Shown here: positions 5,024-34,026 of the stretch, piece after piece
Layout: the number at the start of each line of letters is the position of its first letter
Position numbering within the stretch: the stretch's first letter is position 1
Virus record (IMG/VR): IMGVR_UViG_2541047802_000008
Direction: 5' to 3' (one strand)
DNA: 40,539 nucleotides
Source: a virus
Lineage: Duplodnaviria > Heunggongvirae > Uroviricota > Caudoviricetes
The notes under the pieces: generated by a model
What the model was told of the DNA's origin: nothing
Seen by the model: the letters and a program-made list of their open reading frames with translations, nothing else
Database searches by the model: none
Made by a program: the position numbers and the translations under genes

Positions 5024-5196
5024 TATCAGCCCTCCCATATCTCGTTATCGTTGGCTACATCGCGAGCTTCTTTGCTGACGAAAGCCCACTTAATGCCTTC
5101 CTGTAAGGTGCGGAACTTCCAGCTCATGAATCCGCATGCAGTAACGCAGTACCAACCGTTGATGATTTTCACTGCATAACTTGTTACCTCGGTCTG

Positions 5197-5211
5197 TTAC
5201 CGTTGGGGTAA
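5197..5211. promoter_or_regulatory. Operator-like palindrome TTACC-GTTGG-GGTAA (OL region)
   Basis: Perfect TTACC-N5-GGTAA dyad between the repressor gene terminator and the leftward recombination operon. Confidence 0.6.
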
Positions 5212-5258
5212 TAATTATGCTTATTTGGTTTGGTGTCAATAGATATGAGTTAAAAAAA

Positions 5259-5273
5259 TTACCCGTAAGGTAA
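5259..5273. promoter_or_regulatory. Operator-like palindrome TTACC-CGTAA-GGTAA (OL region)
   Basis: Second perfect dyad 62 bp from the first, same intergenic region. Confidence 0.6.
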
Positions 5274-5284
5274 TCTATCTGGCA

Positions 5285-5330: not shown

Positions 5331-5915
5331 TTATTGTTTGCTTTTTTCGTTCTGGTTGATGACAAATTCAATGTAACTTTCGATCTTTGCTTTCTCGGTT
5401 TCGGGTAACAATGCGTAGCGTGAGCGGTCATAGTTGATAGTCGCAGGGTCGTGCGGGTGAATCAGTAGTTCATATCCGTGACGCCCGAATGCGGATGCAA
5501 CATTCTCCAGGGTGGAAATGGAAACGCTGACCTCATTGTTTAACAGGCGGCTGATTGTCACCTGGGCGACGCCGGATGCGCGGTGAAGTTTTCCCTGTGT
5601 TGAAAGGTCGCGGCTTTCGCTCATCCAGCGTTCCAGGTTGTGAGCCGCCAGCTGACCAATGTCGCTTGGGCCGACAGGCTGAAAACCTTCCTGAGAAAGC
5701 GAGCGATCGATATCAAGCCAGTTACGGGGTTTATTGGCGGCAGCTTCAATTTTTCGCGCAACCTGGTCGCCGATAACCTTCTTGCCAAGAGCCCAGCGGT
5801 TTACCAGATTTGCCTGAGTTCCAAGTTTTTCTGCCATCCGCGTCTGAACACCATTGAATTCACGGTCGATCAAGTCGTTGAGATTTTGCCTGCGGACGTC
5901 CTGGATACTTTTCAT
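5331..5915 (-). CDS. Prophage repressor candidate: tandem HTH (two XRE/lambda-repressor-like DNA-binding domains), no peptidase S24 autocleavage domain
   Basis: 194 aa; N-terminal RRQNLNDLIDREFNGVQTRMAEKLGTQANLVNRW and a second HTH-like segment SGVAQVTISRLLNNEVSVSISTLENVASAFG; no LexA-like Ser/Lys cleavage module. Divergent from a Cro-like gene, flanked on both sides by operator-like dyads. No SD in the last 12 nt before the ATG (the nearest GAGG is about 15 nt upstream, too far). Confidence 0.7.
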   Translation of the reverse strand: MKSIQDVRRQNLNDLIDREFNGVQTRMAEKLGTQANLVNRWALGKKVIGDQVARKIEAAANKPRNWLDIDRSLSQEGFQPVGPSDIGQLAAHNLERWMSESRDLSTQGKLHRASGVAQVTISRLLNNEVSVSISTLENVASAFGRHGYELLIHPHDPATINYDRSRYALLPETEKAKIESYIEFVINQNEKSKQ

Positions 5916-5970
5916 TTTCTGGAAAATCGCCTCATATATGAATCAGTAGATGATTCAATTTAAAGCAATA

Positions 5971-6033
5971 TTACCCATCAGGTAAATGCACCTCATAGGT
6001 AACTATCCTTGATTTTTGTTACCTTATGGGTGA
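5971..6033. promoter_or_regulatory. Immunity-region operator cluster (OR-like): three TTACC-N5-GGTAA-type dyads overlapping divergent promoters
   Basis: Sites at 5971..5985 (perfect), 5988..6002 (GCACC-TCATA-GGTAA) and 6019..6033 (TTACC-TTATG-GGTGA). A candidate rightward promoter TTGTTA-N17-TATTAT overlaps the third site. Confidence 0.6.
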
Positions 6034-6069
6034 ATATTTATTATCTGAAATAAATATCAGGCAATAGCT

Positions 6070-6300: not shown

Positions 6301-6322
6301 TATCCAGCTACAACCCTCTGTA

Positions 6323-6345: not shown

Positions 6346-6355
6346 ATATCTATTC

Positions 6356-8288: not shown

Positions 8289-8294
8289 CGATAA

Positions 8295-8309
8295 TTACCT
8301 GCTGGGTAA
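8295..8309. promoter_or_regulatory. Operator-like dyad TTACC-TGCTG-GGTAA
   Basis: Perfect dyad between the P gene and the nin-like genes. Confidence 0.55.
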
Positions 8310-8356
8310 TAAAATATTCTAAAATCTATTGATTTAGTGTCTTATGTGGTTTTTAA

Positions 8357-8371
8357 TTACCTCAGGGGTAA
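8357..8371. promoter_or_regulatory. Operator-like dyad TTACC-TCAGG-GGTAA overlapping the RBS of the 8375 gene
   Basis: Perfect dyad ending 4 nt before ATG 8375. Confidence 0.55.
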
Positions 8372-8374
8372 ATC

Positions 8375-9970: not shown

Positions 9971-10251
9971 TGGCTAACCTGCAACTTGCCGTTAAAGGTG
10001 AATACTTCGATGCCATGATTCGCGGGGAGAAAACGGAAGAGTATCGCCTGTGTAATGACTACTGGAATAAGCGCCTCGTTAACCGTAAGTATTACCGCCT
10101 GATTATCACAAAGGGATATCCGAAGCGCGAAGACTTCAGTCGCAGAATTGACGTCCCGTATAACGGATATGAAATAAAAACAATCACACATCCGCACTTC
10201 GGTGATAAACCGGTAAAGGTGTTCGCGATAAAGGTAAATATTGATGGCTAA
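9970..10251 (+). CDS. Hypothetical protein, possible ASCH/PUA-like fold (93 aa)
   Basis: GGTGAGG SD and TAATG overlap with the previous gene; N-terminal LQLAVKGEYFDAMIRGEKTEEYR resembles ASCH-domain proteins (low certainty). Confidence 0.4.
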   Translation: MANLQLAVKGEYFDAMIRGEKTEEYRLCNDYWNKRLVNRKYYRLIITKGYPKREDFSRRIDVPYNGYEIKTITHPHFGDKPVKVFAIKVNIDG

Positions 10252-10582
10252 ATCAGCAGCAGAGCGCAAAGCCGCTCAGAGAGCCAGACAAGCTGCATCT
10301 GGTGTGCGTAAGCTGGAGATTGTGCTTGATGCTCAGGAAATTGAAATGCTGGAGCGTAACTGTGCCACACGTCGCCCCGGGCGTGCGCCTTACGAATTTG
10401 GTGAGTATATTGCGTTACTGATCCGCCAGGATGATGCACGCGTGCGCGGGCGTATAAAATCGATCAGCAGAAAACGTTGCGGTAAGTGTGGCGAGAGAGT
10501 TCCTGTGAATTCATGCCCGTGTAATGGTGACTCGCAATGCTGGGTGACCAAAGGCTGGCATGAAACGAAATTAATATTGTGA
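10244..10582 (+). CDS. Hypothetical protein with C-terminal Cys4 zinc-ribbon (112 aa); candidate late-gene regulator
   Basis: AAGGTAAA SD before ATG 10244; C-terminal CGKCGERVPVNSCPCNG; last gene before a promoter/terminator region preceding the terminase genes. Confidence 0.5.
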   Translation: MAKSAAERKAAQRARQAASGVRKLEIVLDAQEIEMLERNCATRRPGRAPYEFGEYIALLIRQDDARVRGRIKSISRKRCGKCGERVPVNSCPCNGDSQCWVTKGWHETKLIL

Positions 10583-10590
10583 CATGTCAC
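10579..10590. repeat. 12-bp perfect palindrome GTGACATGTCAC (copy 1 of 3)
   Basis: Exact palindrome overlapping the stop codon of the 10244..10582 gene. Confidence 0.7.
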
Positions 10591-10631
10591 GAGTGGGTTA
10601 TGCATGATGAATTTGATGGGCTTTGAATACT

Positions 10632-10658
10632 GCCGCCAACTATGGCGGCTTTATTTTG
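10632..10658 (+). terminator. Rho-independent terminator upstream of the terminase genes (tR'-like)
   Basis: GCCGCC-AACTAT-GGCGGC hairpin followed by TTTATTTTG; lies inside the N-terminal extension of the ORF-track terminase-small ORF, arguing for the later start. Confidence 0.55.
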
Positions 10659-10668
10659 CATGGTACTA

Positions 10669-10683
10669 TTACCACAACGGTAA
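10669..10683. promoter_or_regulatory. Operator-like dyad TTACC-ACAAC-GGTAA immediately upstream of the terminase small subunit gene
   Basis: Perfect dyad 18 nt before ATG 10701, followed by an imperfect copy (TTACC-ACGGT-GGTTA) at 10687..10701. Confidence 0.5.
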
Positions 10684-10700
10684 CTATTACCACGGTGGTT

Positions 10701-11297
10701 ATGATGCCTGCTGAACCTAAAACCTATAAACGCAAATCAACGCAATTTAAGCCACTAACAGCAATGCAGGAGGCTTATTGCCAGTCATACATCAAAACTC
10801 CTGAAAACCAGACTCAGGCAGCGATTAACGCAGGATTCTCCCCAAATACAGCGGCAGTTAAAGCCAGTGTCATGATGCGCGATGAACGCATTCAAAAACG
10901 CATTGCCGAGTTGATGGAGGAGCGCAACAAACGAATGCGCGTCAGTGCTGATTACGTTCTCATGCGCCTGGTGGAGATCGACCAGATGGACGTGATTGAT
11001 ATCCTCAACGACGATGGGAGCCTTAAGCCAATCCGCGAGTGGCCGAAAATCTGGCGCACTACGCTTAGCGGCTTTGATCTGTCATCGACCATCATGAACA
11101 TGAACGAGGATTCGATAGAGACAATCCTCAAAAAAATTAAATGGCCTGACAAGGTGAAGAACCTCGAGCTTATCGGTAAGCACGTCGACGTCAACGCGTT
11201 CAAAGAGCGCCTGGATGTTAATGTGAATGTGACAATTGCTGATCGCATAGCAGCAGCCAGGAAGAGACTGAAAGAACGTCAGGATGGCAATCAGTGA
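10701..11297 (+). CDS. Terminase small subunit
   Basis: Translation LTAMQEAYCQSYIKTPENQTQAAINAGFSPNTAAVKASVMMRDERIQKRIAEL matches the Terminase_2-type small subunit pattern; directly precedes and overlaps the large subunit gene. Confidence 0.75.
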   Translation: MMPAEPKTYKRKSTQFKPLTAMQEAYCQSYIKTPENQTQAAINAGFSPNTAAVKASVMMRDERIQKRIAELMEERNKRMRVSADYVLMRLVEIDQMDVIDILNDDGSLKPIREWPKIWRTTLSGFDLSSTIMNMNEDSIETILKKIKWPDKVKNLELIGKHVDVNAFKERLDVNVNVTIADRIAAARKRLKERQDGNQ

Positions 11298-12769
11298 CAG
11301 ATGCAGCGTTATCTCCTGAAGAGCAGTTGATCGAGGATATTGCAGGGTTCACTCACGATCCGCTTGGCTATGCCCTCTATGCGTTCCCGTGGGGGGAAGA
11401 GGGTACTGAACTGGCACATGCCACCGGTCCACGTCAGTGGCAGGCCGATGCGTTCCGAGAGATACGTGATCACCTGCAGAATCCAGAGACGCGATATCAG
11501 CCGCTTATGCTGGCACGTGCTTCTGGTCACGGTATTGGTAAATCCGCATTCATCTCAATGCTGATCAACTGGGGCATGTCCACTTGCGAGGATTGTAAGG
11601 TTGTGGTGACCGCCAACACCGACAACCAGCTACGAACGAAGACCTGGCCGGAAATTATCAAGTGGTCGAACCTTGCTATCACGAAAGACTGGTTTACCTG
11701 TACCGCTACCGCGATGTACAGCAATGATCCTGGACACGACAAGCGGTGGCGAGCTGACGCAATCCCCTGGTCTGAGCACAACACTGAGGCATTCGCCGGA
11801 CTACACAACGAGCGCAAACGCATCATCGTGGTATTCGATGAAGCGTCGAACATTGCGGATCTGGTGTGGGAAGTTGCCGAGGGTGCACTAACGGACGAAG
11901 ACACTGAGATTATCTGGGTGGCGTTCGGAAACCCGACGCGTAATACCGGACGTTTCCGCGAATGTTTCCGCAAATATAAACACCGCTGGAAAACTGCGCA
12001 GATTGACAGCCGAACGGTGGAAGGCACTAACAAACAGCAGTTGCAGAAATGGGTTGATGACTACGGGGAAGACAGCGACTTCGTTAAAATCCGTGTGCGC
12101 GGCATATTCCCTGATGCATCTGAATTGCAGTTTATCCCTACCGGTCTTACTGATGAGGCAATGAAACGGGTGGTAACCGCTGCGCAGGTGGCGCATGCTC
12201 CGGTGATAATCGGCGTTGACCCTGCATACTCCGGTGTTGATGACGCGGTGATATACCTGCGGCAGGGGCTGCACAGTAAGGTGCTGTGGACCGGCAACAA
12301 GACCACTGACGATCTGATTATGGCAAAGCGTATCGCTGACTTTGAAGACCAGTATCAGGCTGACGCGGTGTTCATCGACTTCGGTTACGGTACCGGGCTG
12401 AAGTCAATCGGTGACGGTTGGGGGCGCACATGGCAACTTGTTCCGTTCGGTGGCGCGTCTACTGACCCGCAGATGCTCAACAAGCGTGGGGAGATGTTCA
12501 ATTCATGCAAGACATGGCTGAGGCTGGGCGGCATGCTGGATGACCAGGAAACAGCAGACGACCTGTCGGCGGCAGAGTACAAAGTTCGAGTGGACGGTAA
12601 AATCGTTATCGAACCGAAGGAAGATATCAAGGAGCGGCTTGGGCGTTCACCGGGTAAAGGCGATGCGCTACTGCTGACGTTTGCGTTCCCTGTGTCTAAG
12701 CGTCTGCGAATTCCCGGGCAGCAGAACCAGCAAGGCAAGGCCATCACAGATTACGATCCCTATGCTTAA
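11294..12769 (+). CDS. Terminase large subunit (ATPase/nuclease)
   Basis: 491 aa; GTG start overlapping the small-subunit stop (GTGA); Walker-A-like GHGIGKS; typical position and size. Confidence 0.88.
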   Translation: MTDAALSPEEQLIEDIAGFTHDPLGYALYAFPWGEEGTELAHATGPRQWQADAFREIRDHLQNPETRYQPLMLARASGHGIGKSAFISMLINWGMSTCEDCKVVVTANTDNQLRTKTWPEIIKWSNLAITKDWFTCTATAMYSNDPGHDKRWRADAIPWSEHNTEAFAGLHNERKRIIVVFDEASNIADLVWEVAEGALTDEDTEIIWVAFGNPTRNTGRFRECFRKYKHRWKTAQIDSRTVEGTNKQQLQKWVDDYGEDSDFVKIRVRGIFPDASELQFIPTGLTDEAMKRVVTAAQVAHAPVIIGVDPAYSGVDDAVIYLRQGLHSKVLWTGNKTTDDLIMAKRIADFEDQYQADAVFIDFGYGTGLKSIGDGWGRTWQLVPFGGASTDPQMLNKRGEMFNSCKTWLRLGGMLDDQETADDLSAAEYKVRVDGKIVIEPKEDIKERLGRSPGKGDALLLTFAFPVSKRLRIPGQQNQQGKAITDYDPYA

Positions 12770-12843
12770 TCCGCTTGAGGGGATAATGTTGTTGATATCC
12801 TCTGATGAGGATAAAACAAAGCCAGCTCATAGGCTGGCTGTTT

Positions 12844-12855
12844 GTGATATGTCAC
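12844..12855. repeat. 12-bp palindrome variant GTGATATGTCAC (copy 2 of 3, one mismatch)
   Basis: Between the terminase large gene and the convergent Gp49-like gene. Confidence 0.5.
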
Positions 12856-12859
12856 GGTG

Positions 12860-13234
12860 TTATTGCTCGCTTAACTTCTGCTTCAGCAAGTAACCTTCAA
12901 GCATCCAGATTTTGTTTACAGCATTCTGTCGGGCAATCTTCCGACCAATTTCTGCATCAAAGTTTTCCGGGCTTGCACAGGCGCTCTCTCCGGTGACGGT
13001 GAAGCCGTTGCGCAGCACCAGGACGCAGAAAGTGAGAAGGTGCAGAGCATCAGGGGTGGCTTCGACATAAGGCTCTGGATTATAAATAAGGTCATCTTCT
13101 TTAGCCTGATGATCCCCCTGCGCAGCAGTAAAAAAATGCTCACTGCAAATGAGACCTTCAATTTTCTCAGGAGTTACACGAGGTGCCGTTTTACCTTTCT
13201 CAACGATTTCTTTTTCGATTTGCTGGTCGTTCAT
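12860..13234 (-). CDS. Gp49-like phage protein (conserved, unknown function)
   Basis: 124 aa; AAGGTGAG SD before ATG 13234; C-terminal FDAEIGRKIARQNAVNKIWMLEGYLLKQ resembles N15 gp49-family proteins (from memory). Confidence 0.5.
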   Translation of the reverse strand: MNDQQIEKEIVEKGKTAPRVTPEKIEGLICSEHFFTAAQGDHQAKEDDLIYNPEPYVEATPDALHLLTFCVLVLRNGFTVTGESACASPENFDAEIGRKIARQNAVNKIWMLEGYLLKQKLSEQ

Positions 13235-13438: not shown

Positions 13439-13515
13439 TGGCGTGGCATGCAGGATTCGAACCTGCGACCAACCGCTTAGAAGGCGGTTGCTCTGTCCAA
13501 CTGAGCTAATGCCAC
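13439..13515 (-). tRNA. tRNA-Arg (anticodon UCU, reads AGA), phage-encoded, CCA encoded
   Basis: Reverse complement folds as a cloverleaf: acceptor GTGGCAT/ATGCCAC, D-arm GCTC...GAGC, anticodon stem ACCGC/GCGGT with loop CTTCTAA, T-arm GCAGG-TTCGAAT-CCTGC, discriminator G, CCA. Related to but distinct from host argU as recalled. Confidence 0.9.
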
Positions 13516-13837
13516 AACGCTGAGAGCACTTAGCCTGTTAAGGCGCCACACTTTGTCGCGGCTCCATAAATGCTCTCATCGTTGTACCCTCGTCTCTTCC
13601 GAGGCGTCACACCGAATCGCCGGGATGGTGAATCCCCGTGCGCGGAATAAAACCGCTCGACTTGCACATTCCGGCTACCTGGTTCGTTTGCCACAGCCAG
13701 GGAGGGTGCCCCTTAAACGTATCCAGACCGCTATCGGCGCATGTGCCATACGCCGTACTGCTCAAAATAAAAGCTCACTCCACCTGTTTAATTTAACGAC
13801 AAGCCAGTCAGGTTAGTAACCAGAATGAGCCCTTTGG

Positions 13838-13852
13838 TTACCTGAAAGGTAA
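13838..13852. promoter_or_regulatory. Operator-like dyad TTACC-TGAAA-GGTAA upstream of the virion gene cluster
   Basis: Perfect dyad about 90 nt before ATG 13943; followed by a TTAACGCGTTAA palindrome at 13856..13867. Confidence 0.5.
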
Positions 13853-13942
13853 TAATTAACGCGTTAAATGTCAACCTTCTACGATAAATAAATCATATGT
13901 GGTTAAATTGGTAATAATTTAATTGCGTACGGAGTCATTGAT

Positions 13943-15843: not shown

Positions 15844-16136
15844 CAGATTACGAAGACGATCAACTGAAAGAAGAAAACGCCCGTAAGCAACGTGACATGG
15901 CACAGCGTGAAATTGATGACATTTGCTTTGTCATGAGCAGTGAACAGGGGCGTCGCGTTGTCTGGTCGGTGCTGGAGAAAGGCCGTGTGTTTTCCGCTAT
16001 CTCACCGATGGACGCTATGGCAATGGCATTTAATGAGGGGCAACGCAATCTGGCGCTGGAACTGTTTCAGCGCGTTATGGCGCATTGCCCTGAACAGTAT
16101 TTGAAGATGGCCAAAGAGGCCAGTGAACAGGAGTGA
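15840..16136 (+). CDS. Hypothetical head-assembly-region protein (98 aa)
   Basis: ATGA overlap with the portal stop; coupled in the late operon. Confidence 0.5.
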   Translation: MTDYEDDQLKEENARKQRDMAQREIDDICFVMSSEQGRRVVWSVLEKGRVFSAISPMDAMAMAFNEGQRNLALELFQRVMAHCPEQYLKMAKEASEQE

Positions 16137-19649: not shown

Positions 19650-22126
19650 TGGCTATCAGTTGGATTCAGCCCAGCTTTGCTGGTGGTGAGATTGGACCGT
19701 CGTTGTACGGACGTATCGACATGGCGAAGTACCAGGTGGCATTGCGCAAGTGCGATAACTTTATCGTGCGGCAGTATGGCGGCGTTGAGAATCGACCTGG
19801 TACGCGTTTTGTCGGTGCCGCCAAATATCCAAATCGGAAATGCCGCCTGATCCCGTTCCAGTTCTCGACGGTTCAGACCTATGCTCTGGAGTTCGGACAC
19901 CAGTACATGCGCGTTATCAAAGATGGTGCGTTGGTGCTGAACAGCAGCAATGTTATTTATGAAATTTCCACGCCATATACTGAAGCCGATCTGTTCCGAA
20001 TTAAATTCACGCAAAGCGCAGACGTGCTTACGCTGGTTCATCCGGCATACCCGCCGAAAGAGTTGCGCCGCTATGCGCATGACAACTGGCAACTGGTTGA
20101 TGTGGTAACGAAGAACGGGCCATTTGAAGATATCAATATTGACGAGTCAGTGACGGTTTATGCCAGCGCCAGCACCGGGACAATTACGTTAACGGCAAGC
20201 GCCTCTATTTTTGGCGCGGAGCAGGTAGGCAAATTGTTCTATCTGGAACAGCCTGCAGTGGATTCAGTGCCGGTATGGGAAACCAGTAAGAGTACGTCGA
20301 TTGGCGATATTCGCCGTGCAGACAGTAACTACTATCGAGCCGTTACAGCAGGCAAAACAGGTACTTTGCGCCCTTCGCATACAGAAGGCACATCATGGGA
20401 TGGCTGGGGCGGATCCGGTGATGATGATACTGGCATTGAGTGGGAATATCTGCACAGTGGTTTTGGCATTGCCCGTATCACTGCTGCAAATGGAACTACT
20501 GCAACTGCCGAGGTGATTTCCTATATCCCTTCGCAGGTAGTTGGCGAGGATAATGCCAGCTATAAATGGGCTAAATATGCCTGGAACAGTGTTAATGGTT
20601 ATCCTGGCACTGTTGTTTATTATCAACAACGTCTTTACTTCGCCGCATCGACTGCGTTCCCTCAGACTATCTGGGCCAGCCGTACCGGGGATTATAAGGA
20701 TTTTGGCAAAAGCAATCCTACGCAGGATGACGACAGAATTATCTACACCTATGCCGGGCGTCAGGTTAATGAGATCCGCCACCTGATTGATGTCGGTTCG
20801 CTGGTGGCGCTGACTTCCGGAGGTGAGTACGTCATCACTGGCGACCAGAACAAAGTGCTTACCCCATCATCATTTGCATTCAGCTCTCAGGGATCAAATG
20901 GCTCGAGCAATGTCCCACCAATTGCCGTGGCGAATATTGCTCTGTTCGTCCAGGAGAAAGGCAGTGTTGTCCGTGATCTGGCCTACTCATTCGATGTTGA
21001 CGGCTATCAGGGGAACGACCTGACCATCCTTGCCAATCATCTTTTTCAGAAGCACAGCATTGTTGACTGGTGCTTCTCAATAGTCCCTTACTCCAGCGCC
21101 TTCTGCATCCGTGATGACGGTAAATTACTGGTGATGACCTATTTGCGTGATCAACAGGTTTTTGCATGGGCACCACAGTCCAGTACCGGAAAATATGAAA
21201 GCACATGCAGTATCAGCGAAGGCAATGAAGATGCGGTGTATTTCGTCATTAACCGAACCGTTAACGGGCAAACAGTGAGATACATCGAGCGACTGTCCAG
21301 CCGTTTATTTACCAGCGATGAAGATGCTTTCTTTGTTGATTCTGGCCTTAGCTATGATGGAAGAAATACGTCTGACAGAACGATGACCATCACTGGTGGT
21401 TCTGGCGAATGGGATTACCGCGCGGAATATACAATCAGTGTTTCTGGTGGTGCGTACTTCACCAGTAGTGATGTCGGCGCGCAACTACAGTTCCCTTTCC
21501 CTTATACCGGAACTGATCCTGATACTGGCGATGAGGTGTCAAAAGAATTACGTTGCGACATTATTTCTGTAACCAGCAATACCGCTGTAGTGGTTCGTGC
21601 TAACAGGAACGTCCCGCCATCCCTCAGGAATGTGGCCACCACGAACTGGCAGATGGCGCGCCGGACATTTGGAGGCCTGTCTCATCTTGAAGGCCAGACC
21701 GTAAACATTCTCTCTGATGCGAACGTGGAACCACAGAAAGTGGTTTCCGGAGGTGCCGTCACGCTGGAATCACCGGGGGCTGTAGTGCACATCGGCCTGC
21801 CAATAACTGCTGAATTCGAAACACTGGATATCAACATTAACGGACAGGAAACGCTGCTGGACAAAAAACAGGTGATCCCGTCCGTTACTCTGGTTGTGAA
21901 TGCCAGTCGCGGCATCTGGGCGACTACGCCCGGCGGTAAATGGTACGAATATCCACAGCGTGAATTCGAGTTCTACGATGATCCTGTTGATGATGCTACC
22001 GGAAAAGTAGAAGTGAAACTGGACAGTAACTGGGGCAAAAACGGACGTGTAAAAATCCGTCAGCTTGATCCGTTGCCGCTGTCTGTTCTTGCCGTTATTC
22101 CTCGCCTTACTGTTGGTGGGTTCTGA
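19649..22126 (+). CDS. Large tail protein (tail tubular protein B / nozzle-like)
   Basis: 825 aa; follows the gp11-like gene as in T7-like gene order; family assignment uncertain. Confidence 0.55.
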   Translation: MAISWIQPSFAGGEIGPSLYGRIDMAKYQVALRKCDNFIVRQYGGVENRPGTRFVGAAKYPNRKCRLIPFQFSTVQTYALEFGHQYMRVIKDGALVLNSSNVIYEISTPYTEADLFRIKFTQSADVLTLVHPAYPPKELRRYAHDNWQLVDVVTKNGPFEDINIDESVTVYASASTGTITLTASASIFGAEQVGKLFYLEQPAVDSVPVWETSKSTSIGDIRRADSNYYRAVTAGKTGTLRPSHTEGTSWDGWGGSGDDDTGIEWEYLHSGFGIARITAANGTTATAEVISYIPSQVVGEDNASYKWAKYAWNSVNGYPGTVVYYQQRLYFAASTAFPQTIWASRTGDYKDFGKSNPTQDDDRIIYTYAGRQVNEIRHLIDVGSLVALTSGGEYVITGDQNKVLTPSSFAFSSQGSNGSSNVPPIAVANIALFVQEKGSVVRDLAYSFDVDGYQGNDLTILANHLFQKHSIVDWCFSIVPYSSAFCIRDDGKLLVMTYLRDQQVFAWAPQSSTGKYESTCSISEGNEDAVYFVINRTVNGQTVRYIERLSSRLFTSDEDAFFVDSGLSYDGRNTSDRTMTITGGSGEWDYRAEYTISVSGGAYFTSSDVGAQLQFPFPYTGTDPDTGDEVSKELRCDIISVTSNTAVVVRANRNVPPSLRNVATTNWQMARRTFGGLSHLEGQTVNILSDANVEPQKVVSGGAVTLESPGAVVHIGLPITAEFETLDININGQETLLDKKQVIPSVTLVVNASRGIWATTPGGKWYEYPQREFEFYDDPVDDATGKVEVKLDSNWGKNGRVKIRQLDPLPLSVLAVIPRLTVGGF

Positions 22127-30091: not shown

Positions 30092-30176
30092 TATTCGGAA
30101 TTGTATTGTTCGGAAGAATAATAAAATAACTAGTTAATTTGTGGATTGGTGCTGTTTTTCCATGATAGGGGTAATT

Positions 30177-30557
30177 ATGAGAAAAGTATTTTTGATTTTT
30201 GGATTTATGCTTCTCGTTGGATGCCAGTCAGCTGCACAGTTTGAAAGAAATATGCTTACGTGGCGCGGGCAGAGTATAGACGCAATGGTTCAGCAGTGGG
30301 GGTATCCTCAGGGAGAGCTTACATCTCCAGATGGAAACAGAGTGTATGTTTACTCAAGCTCTGGTAGTTATAACGTACCACAAACCACAACGTATAATAC
30401 TACGTCTAATCTAATTGGTAATACTATATATTCAAACACATACGCAACAACTGATGGCGGTTATACACTCCATTTCAGTTGCTCTGTTTACGTTGAGTTT
30501 GGTGCTGATAAGATTATTAAAAATGTTACATGGCGCGGTAATAATTGCGTTGCGTGA
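30177..30557 (+). CDS. Lipoprotein (126 aa) with signal peptide and lipobox LVGC; accessory gene
   Basis: MRKVFLIFGFMLLVGCQS signal/lipobox; Thr/Ser/Tyr-rich mature region; AT-rich surroundings. Confidence 0.6.
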   Translation: MRKVFLIFGFMLLVGCQSAAQFERNMLTWRGQSIDAMVQQWGYPQGELTSPDGNRVYVYSSSGSYNVPQTTTYNTTSNLIGNTIYSNTYATTDGGYTLHFSCSVYVEFGADKIIKNVTWRGNNCVA

Positions 30558-30565
30558 CATGTCAC
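30554..30565. repeat. 12-bp perfect palindrome GTGACATGTCAC (copy 3 of 3)
   Basis: Overlaps the lipoprotein stop codon and directly abuts the terminator hairpin. Confidence 0.7.
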
Positions 30566-30590
30566 AGGCCGCTTTCGCGGCCTTGTTTTT
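30566..30590 (+). terminator. Rho-independent terminator after the lipoprotein gene
   Basis: AGGCCGC-TTT-CGCGGCCT hairpin followed by TGTTTTT. Confidence 0.6.
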
Positions 30591-30750
30591 AACGAATGCC
30601 ACCGCCACCCGGGCGGGAATCCGCAGAACGCCCACCGCAGCGTGAGCCGTCAGCAGCAGTGTCGCTGTCGTGCTGACAACGACCGGCAAAGGCCTGAGTT
30701 GAAGCTACCAGAGACAACAAAACGAACAGTGCAGCAAATGCTTTTTTCAT
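30589..30750 (-). CDS. Small secreted protein candidate (53 aa) with signal peptide
   Basis: MKKAFAALFVLLSLVASTQAFA signal peptide followed by a short Cys-containing Gly/Arg-rich region; weak RBS. Confidence 0.3.
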   Translation of the reverse strand: MKKAFAALFVLLSLVASTQAFAGRCQHDSDTAADGSRCGGRSADSRPGGGGIR

Positions 30751-31766: not shown

Positions 31767-32423
31767 TCAGAAGAACCCTGCTTTGTCGTTGATATACTCC
31801 GCGTGGGTCTGGATATCACGCAGGCATTTGCTCACACCGACGATGTAGCAGAACATGGTGGTCAGCTCCGCCGCCGCGCCCGATACGTCGTGCCCGTCGT
31901 CCTGTAACTGGTTCAGCAGATTCATCAGCAGTGAGTGCTCCGTCAGGCCGAGAACACCAGACGGCGAGTGAATCAAACTGCGGTAGCCGGGCTTCAGCGG
32001 GGCGCTGTATTCTTTTTTGTCTTCCAGCTTGATCGCCTCCATAATGGCGGGCATGAAGCCTGACAAGACCTTCTCCACTTTTGTTTCTTGTTGTCTTAAA
32101 CGTTTCTCGCATTCAATGAAGTAGCGTCGCACCTGGCGACCTTTTTCGTTACGCTCGACCATCGCCAGCTCTTTGGCTGTATCAAGGGTGAGGTGGTACT
32201 CTTTGCGGTTGTGGCCGCCTCTACCAGATGTTTGCTTTCCCAAATTGGAAAGCAAAATATAGTCTTGATTTTCAATGAATTCGTATTCTGATATGCGATT
32301 TGTAATCCATGCTGCAAACACCTTTTTAACACCTAAAAAAGCGTGCAGATCGCGGGCATTACAAAGTAGGGCTGTTTCGTTAGATATAGTGCCGTTGAAT
32401 ACGGGGATGAGTTGAGCGTTCAT
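31767..32423 (-). CDS. Ant-like antirepressor candidate (218 aa): N-terminal AntA-like domain plus C-terminal domain shared with the 33574..33831 protein
   Basis: N-terminal [33 protein letters not shown] resembles the AntA/AntB antirepressor N-domain pattern (from memory). The C-terminal ~70 aa align with the 85-aa protein at about 45% identity (IH(S/T)P.GV..L.E.S.LM.LL..L..DG..V.G..AELT...Y......DLQTH). Confidence 0.6.
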
Positions 32424-32580
32424 GATGGCGTCTCCACTTAGCGAATTACATCACCACCGCTGAGACCAATCAGATGGTGGTGAACTGAACGGAGTTGGTC
32501 TTACCGGCCTAAGTGGTACCGGCGTCCTTTCGGACCCCCATTCAGCCCACCATAATTCTGGCATGACTGTGCTATACGCA

Positions 32581-32665
32581 TAAAAAAACCACGTCTGGCG
32601 TGGTATGCGCCACTTAGTAATCCGGGAGACCAATCCCGGCACTGGATTTTGCCAGTGCCCGATTA
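32581..32665 (-). ncRNA. Candidate small RNA or attenuating leader upstream of the Ant-like gene
   Basis: Minus-strand unit: candidate promoter near 32660-32700 (TTTACA-N18-TAGTAA on the minus strand, overlapped by an operator dyad), two adjacent hairpins (32640..32657 and 32622..32639) and an intrinsic terminator (CCACG-CCAGA-CGTGG plus U7, plus-strand 32582..32603). No convincing ORF. Confidence 0.3.
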
Positions 32666-32694
32666 CTATGGCACAAGAGGAGTGCAATGTAAAT

Positions 32695-32709
32695 TTACCG
32701 CAAAGGTAA
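32695..32709. promoter_or_regulatory. Operator-like dyad TTACC-GCAAA-GGTAA
   Basis: Perfect dyad overlapping the candidate promoter of the leader/Ant transcription unit. Confidence 0.5.
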
Positions 32710-32787
32710 TGATAAACGCGAAGAAATATTAAAATCAACCGTATTTGGTTGATTGCGTTTAACGCTTGATCACCTGAAAGCAAGATA

Positions 32788-32802
32788 TTACCTTTAAGGT
32801 AA
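32788..32802. promoter_or_regulatory. Operator-like dyad TTACC-TTTAA-GGTAA
   Basis: Perfect dyad 21 nt upstream of ATG 32823. Confidence 0.5.
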
Positions 32803-32822
32803 TGTTATTGTGAGGAAAAGCA

Positions 32823-33852: not shown

Positions 33853-33868
33853 CTGTATATTTATACAG
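33853..33868. promoter_or_regulatory. LexA (SOS) box CTGTATATTTATACAG
   Basis: With flanks AACTGTATATTTATACAGTA it matches the enterobacterial LexA consensus TACTGTATATATATACAGTA at 18 of 20 positions; a TATAAA -10-like element lies inside the box on the coding (minus) strand. Confidence 0.75.
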
Positions 33869-33907
33869 TAGCAAATAATTTGTTTGCTATCCAGCACGTT
33901 TTGCAAA

Positions 33908-33922
33908 TTACCCGAAAGGTAA
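33908..33922. promoter_or_regulatory. Operator-like dyad TTACC-CGAAA-GGTAA
   Basis: Perfect dyad upstream of the LexA-box promoter, between it and the tailspike gene. Confidence 0.5.
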
Positions 33923-34026
33923 TATCTATTGGTATTTATAGTCTTTTTATCCATATATGGTTTTTCAGGTAATAGAATAACCAGATATGCGGCGCAACGG
34001 GTGCTGCGACTATCTGGAGATTTAAC

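Follow-up and report, generated by a model that had tools for sequence, protein, structure and literature searches.

The window analysed here, namely the whole 40,539-nucleotide (nt) stretch of the IMG/VR virus record IMGVR_UViG_2541047802_000008 (Caudoviricetes), carries at 10244-10701 a gene for a 112-amino-acid (aa) protein, a palindrome, an intrinsic terminator and a pair of dyads, which together lead up to the gene for the small subunit of the terminase (terS). The region is 95-97% identical to the Escherichia phages PAS61, O157 typing phages 9 and 10, TL-2011b and phiV10, and by sequence the window is an epsilon15/phiV10-like (Uetakevirus) prophage of E. coli, the epsilon15-like phages being temperate podophages. 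Its genes run from the integrase through the leftward early genes, a cI-like repressor gene and a cro-like gene to O- and P-like replication genes, nin-like genes, the 112-aa gene, terS (Terminase_2) and terL; beyond terL come a reverse-strand gene and a tRNA-Arg, then the portal and structural genes and, toward the right end, a reverse-strand antirepressor region with C4 and isrK RNAs, a tail-fibre gene and the lysis genes. A first-pass annotation made from the letters alone had listed the four features that precede terS, all of which are present within 1-2 nt of where it placed them, and had recognized the interval as the boundary between early and late genes, a view that is borne out by our analysis.

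The same annotation ascribed to this interval the organization of lambda pR'-tR', with promoter, terminator and late genes in that order. The comparisons presented below point to a different arrangement, in which the conserved promoter lies downstream of the terminator instead. We favor, with a probability of roughly 0.6, the explanation that 10244-10701 is the border of the early-right operon and the packaging genes and that it holds two independent modules: a gene with its own palindrome, and a terminator followed by a repressor-controlled promoter for terS. The features are collected in Table 1; a scan of the whole window with Rfam gave no match inside 10244-10701.

Table 1. Window coordinates of the junction features and of the related sites elsewhere in the window
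Feature	Position	Strand	Remarks
112-aa protein gene, last of the early-right operon	10244..10582	+	PHROG 536; ribbon-helix-helix-like core, zinc ribbon (predicted)
Site A, perfect 12-bp palindrome GTGACATGTCAC	10579..10590	.	over the TGA stop of the 112-aa gene
Eight-codon open reading frame remnant, MHDEFDGL and stop	10600..10626	+	holds CATGAT (10603-10608), the -10 of the first-pass annotation
Intrinsic terminator of the early-right operon, GCCGCCAACTATGGCGGC with tail TTTATTTT	10632..10657	+	7-bp stem, 4-nt loop
Predicted extended -10 terS promoter, TGGTACTAT	10661..10669	+	TG 10661-10662, hexamer TACTAT 10664-10669
Operator O1, ATTACCACAACGGTAAC	10668..10684	.	over the last two -10 bases and the predicted start site
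Operator O2, ATTACCACGGTGGTTAT	10686..10702	.	over the Shine-Dalgarno sequence and the terS start
terS, terminase small subunit (Terminase_2)	10701..11297	+	Pfam PF03592, E = 1e-29
Site B, palindrome with one mismatch, GTGATATGTCAC	12844..12855	.	between terL and a variable reverse-strand gene
Site C, exact GTGACATGTCAC	30554..30565	.	over the stop of the open reading frame 30141-30557; terminator 30566-30591 directly after
cI-like repressor gene, two helix-turn-helix domains	5331..5915	-	Pfam HTH_3 and YdaS-like matches
O_L and O_R operator copies	5196-5212, 5258-5274, 5970-5986, 6018-6034	.	flank the cI-like gene, two per side
Two operator copies	8294-8310, 8356-8372	.	around the internal early promoter TTGATT-17-TTTAAT
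Operator copy	13837..13853	.	ahead of the portal/structural block; phiV10 3251, Tyrion 3968
Operator copies of the C4-RNA/antirepressor region	32694-32710, 32787-32803	.	three sites are counted in this region
Operator copy	33907..33923	.	ahead of the tail-fibre gene; phiV10 20876, Tyrion 21775

A palindrome linked to the 112-aa gene

The palindrome at the junction proved to be perfect over its 12 bp, and its distribution in other genomes indicates that it belongs to the 112-aa gene and not to terS. We gathered from GTDB genomes, IMG/VR and GenBank phages 152 loci with a homologue of this gene and enough downstream sequence, 98 of which are distinct. GTGAC-NN-GTCAC overlaps the stop codon of the gene in 81 of the 98 distinct loci and lies at most 10 nt past it in another five (i.e. 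it overlaps or abuts the stop in 86/98); it is located 11-260 nt past the stop in six, and in the last six we found none. The linkage is kept down to 34% protein identity and is also observed where a TAA or TAG stop is followed by the palindrome; hence, it does not arise from a coding constraint. At least 10 different sequences occur 3' of the palindrome among these loci: a terminator and terS at 22, 41 or 53 nt, a 70-aa open reading frame (ORF) whose ribosome-binding site begins 1 nt past the palindrome, SOS-box promoters of umuD-like morons, unrelated terminators, or directly the next cistron (N15 gp47, L017, L072). Throughout, the half-sites are invariant and the central dinucleotide is variable. 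Across six phage genomes a spacer of 2 nt is found in 15 copies, while spacers of 1, 3 and 4 nt are found in 0, 1 and 0; exact copies number two or three per genome in the six phages, and shuffled genomes give 0.03 copies of GTGACNNGTCAC. Such a gene-linked and repeated site with invariant half-sites is the signature of a dimeric sequence-specific DNA-binding protein inherited together with its site as one module. Accordingly, site A, which combines the half-sites of the E. coli matS element with a 2-nt spacer, is the predicted and probable binding site of the 112-aa protein.

In several relatives (L007, L008, L013, L078, L092, L095) the exact 3' edge of the palindrome is the insertion point of a moron that brings its own sigma-70 promoter, with a LexA box, the inserted gene being umuD-like in the L008 type; the palindrome therefore appears to mark a recombination or mosaic boundary. 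Two further interpretations of the palindrome were set aside. A nut-like RNA hairpin would have a stem of only 4 bp, the half-sites show no covariation, being invariant, and some of the copies are within translated sequence; this interpretation is kept weakly alive, though not favored, by three variants, each with a single base changed, that are G.U- or loop-compatible on the transcribed strand. The palindrome is also not the N15 SopB centromere site, which differs in sequence (GTGCGACCACGGTCGCAC).

The 112-aa protein is recovered by PHROG 536, labelled 'transcriptional regulator', with E = 2e-54, and belongs to a family of modest size (214 clusters at 50% identity) that we detected only in phages of Enterobacterales, Vibrio and Aeromonas. 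The family alignments reveal a basic N-terminal helix, a strand and helix typical of ribbon-helix-helix (RHH) proteins, an RRPGR turn, a long helix and four conserved cysteines (C79, C82, C91 and C99), which fit the zinc ribbon previously noticed in this ORF and place it at the C-terminus. The protein has no match in Pfam, nothing significant in NCBIfam and no sequence match in the PDB. A first AlphaFold run with 24 sequences was of low confidence (predicted local distance difference test, pLDDT, of 62), whereas AlphaFold2 with 55 diverse sequences reached a pLDDT of 93. The predicted model combines an RHH with a zinc ribbon and its top fold match is MatP, with low fold scores; Foldseek of the model against the PDB returned nothing significant, and the sequence-profile comparisons with CopG, Arc and MatP were not significant either. 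Given the low fold scores and these profile comparisons, we regard the RHH fold as likely but not proven. Of the earlier suggestion that this protein is the regulator of the junction, the DNA-binding candidate tied to the palindrome is retained; the kinship with Q is lost, since sequence searches of Pfam, PHROGs, NCBIfam and the PDB, with a threshold as lax as E <= 10, recovered no Q or antiterminator family for it.

The two other sites of the window, B and C, recur in position as well. Site B, which lies 4 nt from a bidirectional terminator (12820-12839), is kept in phiV10, Tyrion and about 12 other loci, and site C is kept in phiV10 (19493) and Tyrion (20377), such that both phages show the same three palindrome positions as the window. 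All three sites of the epsilon15-like phages are borders of transcription units: site A ends the early operon, site B is near the post-terL terminator by the reverse-strand morons and site C is 0-1 nt before the terminator of the structural block. On the reverse strand at 30595-30750, ending 11 nt from the site C terminator, is a small ORF with a signal-peptide-like N-terminus (MKKAFAALFVLLSLVASTQAFA...). A one-mismatch palindrome, GTGACATGGCAC, is also found at 15892-15903 inside the ORF after the portal gene, and is kept in 28 related loci.

Beyond the epsilon15-like phages, ZF40, N15, phiKO2 and Vibrio phage K308 have three copies each, and their proteins are 31-66% identical to that of the window. 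In K308, one site precedes the lysis genes, 226 nt past the regulator gene, one is 19 nt from the terS start codon and one is 19 nt from the start codon of a recombinase-like gene. At this locus (L190) the two sites that share the 19-nt distance from the next start codon are at 21342 and 35942, and the three sites with a 2-nt spacer are accompanied by a single genuine matS match of 13 bp. N15 and phiKO2 have one site inside repA and one ahead of the antirepressor operon, and both are conserved between the two phages while their flanks diverge. The P2-like Yersinia phage vB_YenM_42.18 (L110 466-550; record 11675-11745) has an array of GTGACATGGCAC, the variant in common with window 15892-15903, and GTGACATGTCAC together with a half-site GTGACA, 33 bp apart; it comes after a terminator-like hairpin and upstream of an unknown 240-aa gene, the regulator homologue being 3.4 kb away.

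Terminator, predicted terS promoter and dispersed operators

The identification of an intrinsic terminator downstream of the palindrome stands: a hairpin followed by a U-tract is present, six of its seven stem pairs are GC, it is part of the minimum-free-energy fold, and in relatives it is conserved and keeps a fixed distance to the promoter downstream of it, L105 having the one G.U variant. The promoter formerly placed ahead of this terminator, with its -35 over the palindrome, did not hold up. GTGACA-18-CATGAT agrees with the consensus at 9/12 positions, and 3 kb contain two such matches against 3.9 in shuffles, i.e. the match is at chance level. Moreover, its -10 is part of an ORF remnant. 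Sister phages of the L035 type have a full ORF of ~70 aa, the ATG of which is within 9 nt of the palindrome and which ends with DEFDGL and a stop immediately before the same terminator; of this ORF the window keeps at 10591-10631 only ATG CAT GAT GAA TTT GAT GGG CTT TGA. The segment between palindrome and terminator is thus, by this comparison, a deletion remnant. Neither the -10 nor the spacing of the upstream candidate is conserved among the relatives, in which the distance from palindrome to terminator ranges from 19 to >240 nt.

What is conserved instead is an extended -10 element directly 3' of the terminator, which precedes each terS of this family that we could align. More than 50 distinct terS contexts carry TGnTAnnAT, the n positions being variable, at 40-42 nt before the ATG where the leader can be aligned. 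TG, A2, A5 and T6 are invariant and T1 is nearly so, while positions 3-4 of the hexamer and the n position vary (TACTAT, TAGTAT, TATTAT, TATGAT, TACCAT, TACAAT); when ten diverged regions upstream of terS are aligned, TG, A, AT and TACC are the sole columns without variation. The element survives in L008 and L013, where a umuD-like insertion removed the terminator, and persists in the Samsonia locus L019 without a palindrome nearby. It has no recognizable -35. This strong comparative evidence argues for a predicted terS promoter of the extended -10 sigma-70 type, with transcription starting at about 10676; the start codon of terS is at 10701 or 10704.

The dyads by the terminase start, previously described as operator-like, match a 17-bp inverted repeat, ATTACC-N5-GGTAAT, for which the window has four exact sites and 12 sites with at most one mismatch, against 0.1 expected from shuffles. 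All 12 are intergenic, and the view of the dyads as real operators is supported. O2 is conserved in phiV10 and partly in other relatives, and phiV10 and Tyrion have operators at places corresponding to those of the window, plus one ahead of the lysis genes. An extra operator-like site at 6355, after the cro terminator, has two mismatches and is not among the 12. The last AT of the -10 is at the same time the first AT of the operator at P_L (TTGACA-17-AATTAT, minus strand, 5239-5211), the 8356 promoter, the C4 promoter (TTGATT-18-TATCAT) and the terS promoter. A pattern of terminator and then operator recurs rightward, at 6322/6355, ~8270/8294-8356 and 10632/10668. Read most simply, these observations have the prophage repressor, which presumably binds ATTACC-N5-GGTAAT, acting on the terS promoter directly, by occlusion. 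This repressor of 194 aa has a YdaS-like domain at residues 21-61 and an HTH_3 domain at 106-147 in a single chain, and the two domains may explain how it would recognize a 17-bp inverted repeat whose arms are 5 nt apart. We also considered the dyads as a pac or TerS-binding site; the presence of this motif beside the cI-like gene and other promoters as well led us to reject the idea.

Several other elements accompany the late units. A reverse-strand gene of PHROG 322 (12860-13234) and a reverse-strand tRNA-Arg with the anticodon tct (13439-13515) are found between terL and the portal block and split the two; hence, the late region is not one uninterrupted operon. Rfam identifies a C4 antisense RNA and an isrK Hfq-binding RNA in tandem on the reverse strand (32473-32658), upstream of a gene of the AntA antirepressor family; with the antA-like gene at 31767-32423 they form a P1/P7-type immI module within an epsilon15-like phage. 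A perfect LexA box, CTGTATATTTATACAG, is present at 33853-33868, about 40 nt upstream of the operator before the tail-fibre gene.

Interpretation of the junction and its alternatives

We propose that the terminator would end early transcription and insulate the packaging genes, and that late transcription would start past it, rather than before it, from the terS promoter directly on its 3' side. Two operators would occlude this promoter, one over the -10 and the predicted start and the other over the ribosome-binding site. P_L and P_R would be guarded by the same operator, as would the internal early promoters and the antirepressor region, and so would the portal and tail-fibre blocks at their heads; with operators at all these units the repressor would shut every lytic unit directly, each being fenced by a terminator. 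That the packaging genes are insulated by the terminator and have their own repressor-controlled promoter is proposed with reasonable confidence. For the other module, we infer that the 112-aa protein is a dimeric RHH binder of the putative site GTGAC-NN-GTCAC at its own stop, with copies at two other borders of late units. When bound at these borders it might alter the passage of RNA polymerase through the adjacent terminators, allowing read-through, with the result that early and late units would be co-transcribed once the protein accumulates. Our confidence in this read-through role is low. We lean toward it because the gene sits where Q sits in lambdoid phages, because in two unrelated types of phage (epsilon15-like and Vibrio K308) late blocks are headed or separated by the sites, and because a block 19 nt before the K308 terS start codon would be self-defeating. 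An antitermination-like role at the palindrome, if any, would not work in the manner of lambda Q at pR'.

A number of observations weigh against parts of this proposal. As each late block has its own operator-linked region, antitermination is not required. The strong terminator at site B faces the reverse strand, and read-through there would yield antisense terL RNA. Some sites are inside coding regions (repA of N15 and phiKO2; gp08 and gp12 of ZF40), N15 and phiKO2 also have a Q-like gene, and the Yersinia array with its 33-bp period has more the look of a structural or repressor array. On the side of the promoter, an extended -10 element lacking a -35 may still need an activator, and a Cro-like protein could bind the operator instead of, or besides, the repressor.

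The alternatives differ chiefly in what they ask of the palindrome. In the Q-type scheme of the first-pass annotation, a promoter with its -35 over the palindrome would produce a short leader that stops at 10657, and the 112-aa protein would let polymerase into terS in the way of lambda Q. GTGACA does match the -35 consensus at 5/6 positions with CATGAT 18 bp downstream, Tyrion-type phages carry GTGACA-17-TAAATT, and the gene occupies the position of Q; yet, besides the chance-level match, the -10 in a deleted ORF, the variable distance to the terminator and the lack of Q-family similarity already described, Rahnella-type loci have no such -10 and the conserved promoter is past the terminator, which makes this scheme extremely improbable. 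A conventional activator of late promoters (RinA-, Ogr- or Lpa-like) that binds the palindrome and stimulates the -35-less terS promoter would be in keeping with the place of the gene, directly before terS like the genes of the RinA-type activators in Gram-positive phages (PMC3152322), and in four context types the palindrome is centered at about -71.5, -73.5, -91.5 and -102.5 from the predicted start. A fixed geometry is nevertheless lacking: from palindrome to -10 we measured 50, 52, 70, 81, ~256 and >400 bp, the palindrome being ~256 bp upstream in the common L035 type and 400-460 bp upstream in the SOS-moron types, contexts that rule out class I phasing. Likewise, no promoter stands at a corresponding distance from site B, site C or the Vibrio sites, and Samsonia L019 has the promoter with no palindrome nearby; we consider such an activator very unlikely. 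A late promoter of the P1 Lpa type, with the palindrome at -22, was also discarded, as a -10 is found 3-4 nt past the palindrome only in L012 and ZF40. If the palindrome and protein formed a bidirectional roadblock or insulator, they would reinforce terminators and separate early, late and reverse-oriented moron transcription. The site, being a perfect palindrome, is orientation-independent, sites B and C are at convergent junctions 0-4 nt from hairpins with a U-tract that is weak in one direction, and the in-gene sites (repA of N15 and phiKO2; early genes of ZF40) would suit a late shut-off of early functions. But the K308 site 19 nt before the terS start leaves no room for a promoter, so that a roadblock there would block the whole structural operon, and one at site A would truncate the mRNA of the protein itself; this we hold to be quite improbable.

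The remaining alternative looks to the host. The E. coli matS consensus is GTGAC[AG]N[CT]GTCAC, with GTGACATTGTCAC as the best site (PMC3603311, PMC8669397), and the phage palindrome is equivalent to matS with one central base removed, the half-sites being identical and the spacer 2 rather than 3 nt. It is conceivable, if unlikely, that the protein is a miniature MatP analogue that bridges or organizes phage DNA at these sites, or unloads or excludes MukBEF-type complexes of the structural maintenance of chromosomes (SMC) kind, with no direct role in late transcription; the place beside the terminator would then be incidental, a quiet non-coding spot linked to the gene. Two or three sites per genome, some in genes, and the single Yersinia array are consistent with this, and MukBEF is a known phage target, being inhibited by gp5.9 of T7 (PMC7617805). 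The family is confined to phages of Enterobacterales, Vibrio and Aeromonas, though this overlap of host range may be a sampling bias. These are the lineages that have MatP. Against the analogy, the sites of the six genomes are not of the 13-bp matS form (spacer 2, n = 15; spacer 3, n = 1), Pfam lists neither of the MatP families PF06303 and PF17414 for the phage family, and the similarity to MatP is not significant (hhalign E = 0.1, hmmsearch ~8 bits, BLASTP E = 13), where a homologue search with MatP as the query gave near-identical MatPs only and no diverse MatP profile. The N-terminal four-helix bundle and the C-terminal coiled coil of MatP are absent from the 112-aa protein; with these flanking domains absent and the similarity not significant, membership in the MatP family is not established. 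A literature search recovered no description of a phage MatP-like protein, and the 12-mer palindrome in no paper; the papers on ZX5 and mEpimmI had no bearing on the junction.

Significance and relation to known systems

For the epsilon15/phiV10 group, to which prophages of O157, O103 and Salmonella belong, the analysis amends the regulatory map: the packaging genes appear to be controlled directly by the repressor rather than switched by Q. It also pairs PHROG 536, uncharacterized and without a Pfam entry, with a probable DNA site, and conservation of this protein-site pair extends from podophages of E. coli to siphophages of Vibrio and to N15 and phiKO2, which are linear plasmid-prophages. 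The near-matS site offers a testable link between phage development and the organization of the host chromosome by MatP and MukBEF, of note as prophages are reported to lack genuine matS (PMC3603311). As a speculation, which we rate as somewhat unlikely, phages of enterobacteria, Vibrio and Aeromonas might carry a self-contained 'mini-MatP' module that controls the loading of MukBEF-type SMC complexes or the folding of replicating DNA, or else a new site-dependent elongation factor in place of Q. As a mini-MatP, its sites, shorter by one base, would stay orthogonal to the host MatP, the true sites of which prophages avoid.

Among known systems, E. coli MatP/matS resembles the pair in the RHH fold, a likely one for the phage protein, where the strand is preceded by a basic helix and followed by a long one, and in having GTGAC/GTCAC palindromes in few dispersed copies; it differs from the phage system in that the latter has a 2-nt spacer and a protein of 112 aa with a zinc ribbon, which is phage-encoded and expressed from an early lytic operon. 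With lambda Q/qut/pR'-tR' the junction shares a regulator gene at the end of the early-right operon by the late genes, an adjoining cis site and a terminator. Unlike lambda, the promoter here comes after the terminator and appears operator-controlled rather than constitutive, the protein has no similarity to the Q family, and the site is a perfect palindrome found at three unit borders rather than a Q-binding element embedded in a promoter. The RinA/Ltr-type activators of Gram-positive phages likewise have a small regulator gene directly 5' of terS at the early/late boundary; their fold is different, and the 112-aa family lacks a fixed geometry of site and promoter and is also encoded away from terS (N15, ZF40 and P2-like phages). 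The operators call to mind the C1 operators of phage P1 and the gp71 stoperators of mycobacteriophage L5, where one operator is dispersed genome-wide on lytic promoters, as with the at least 12 copies here. The sites of P1 and L5 are asymmetric, whereas the operator of the window is a symmetric 17-bp inverted repeat. It further differs from P1 in being placed on the terminase promoter itself, the late promoters of P1 requiring the activator Lpa (PMC10695390).

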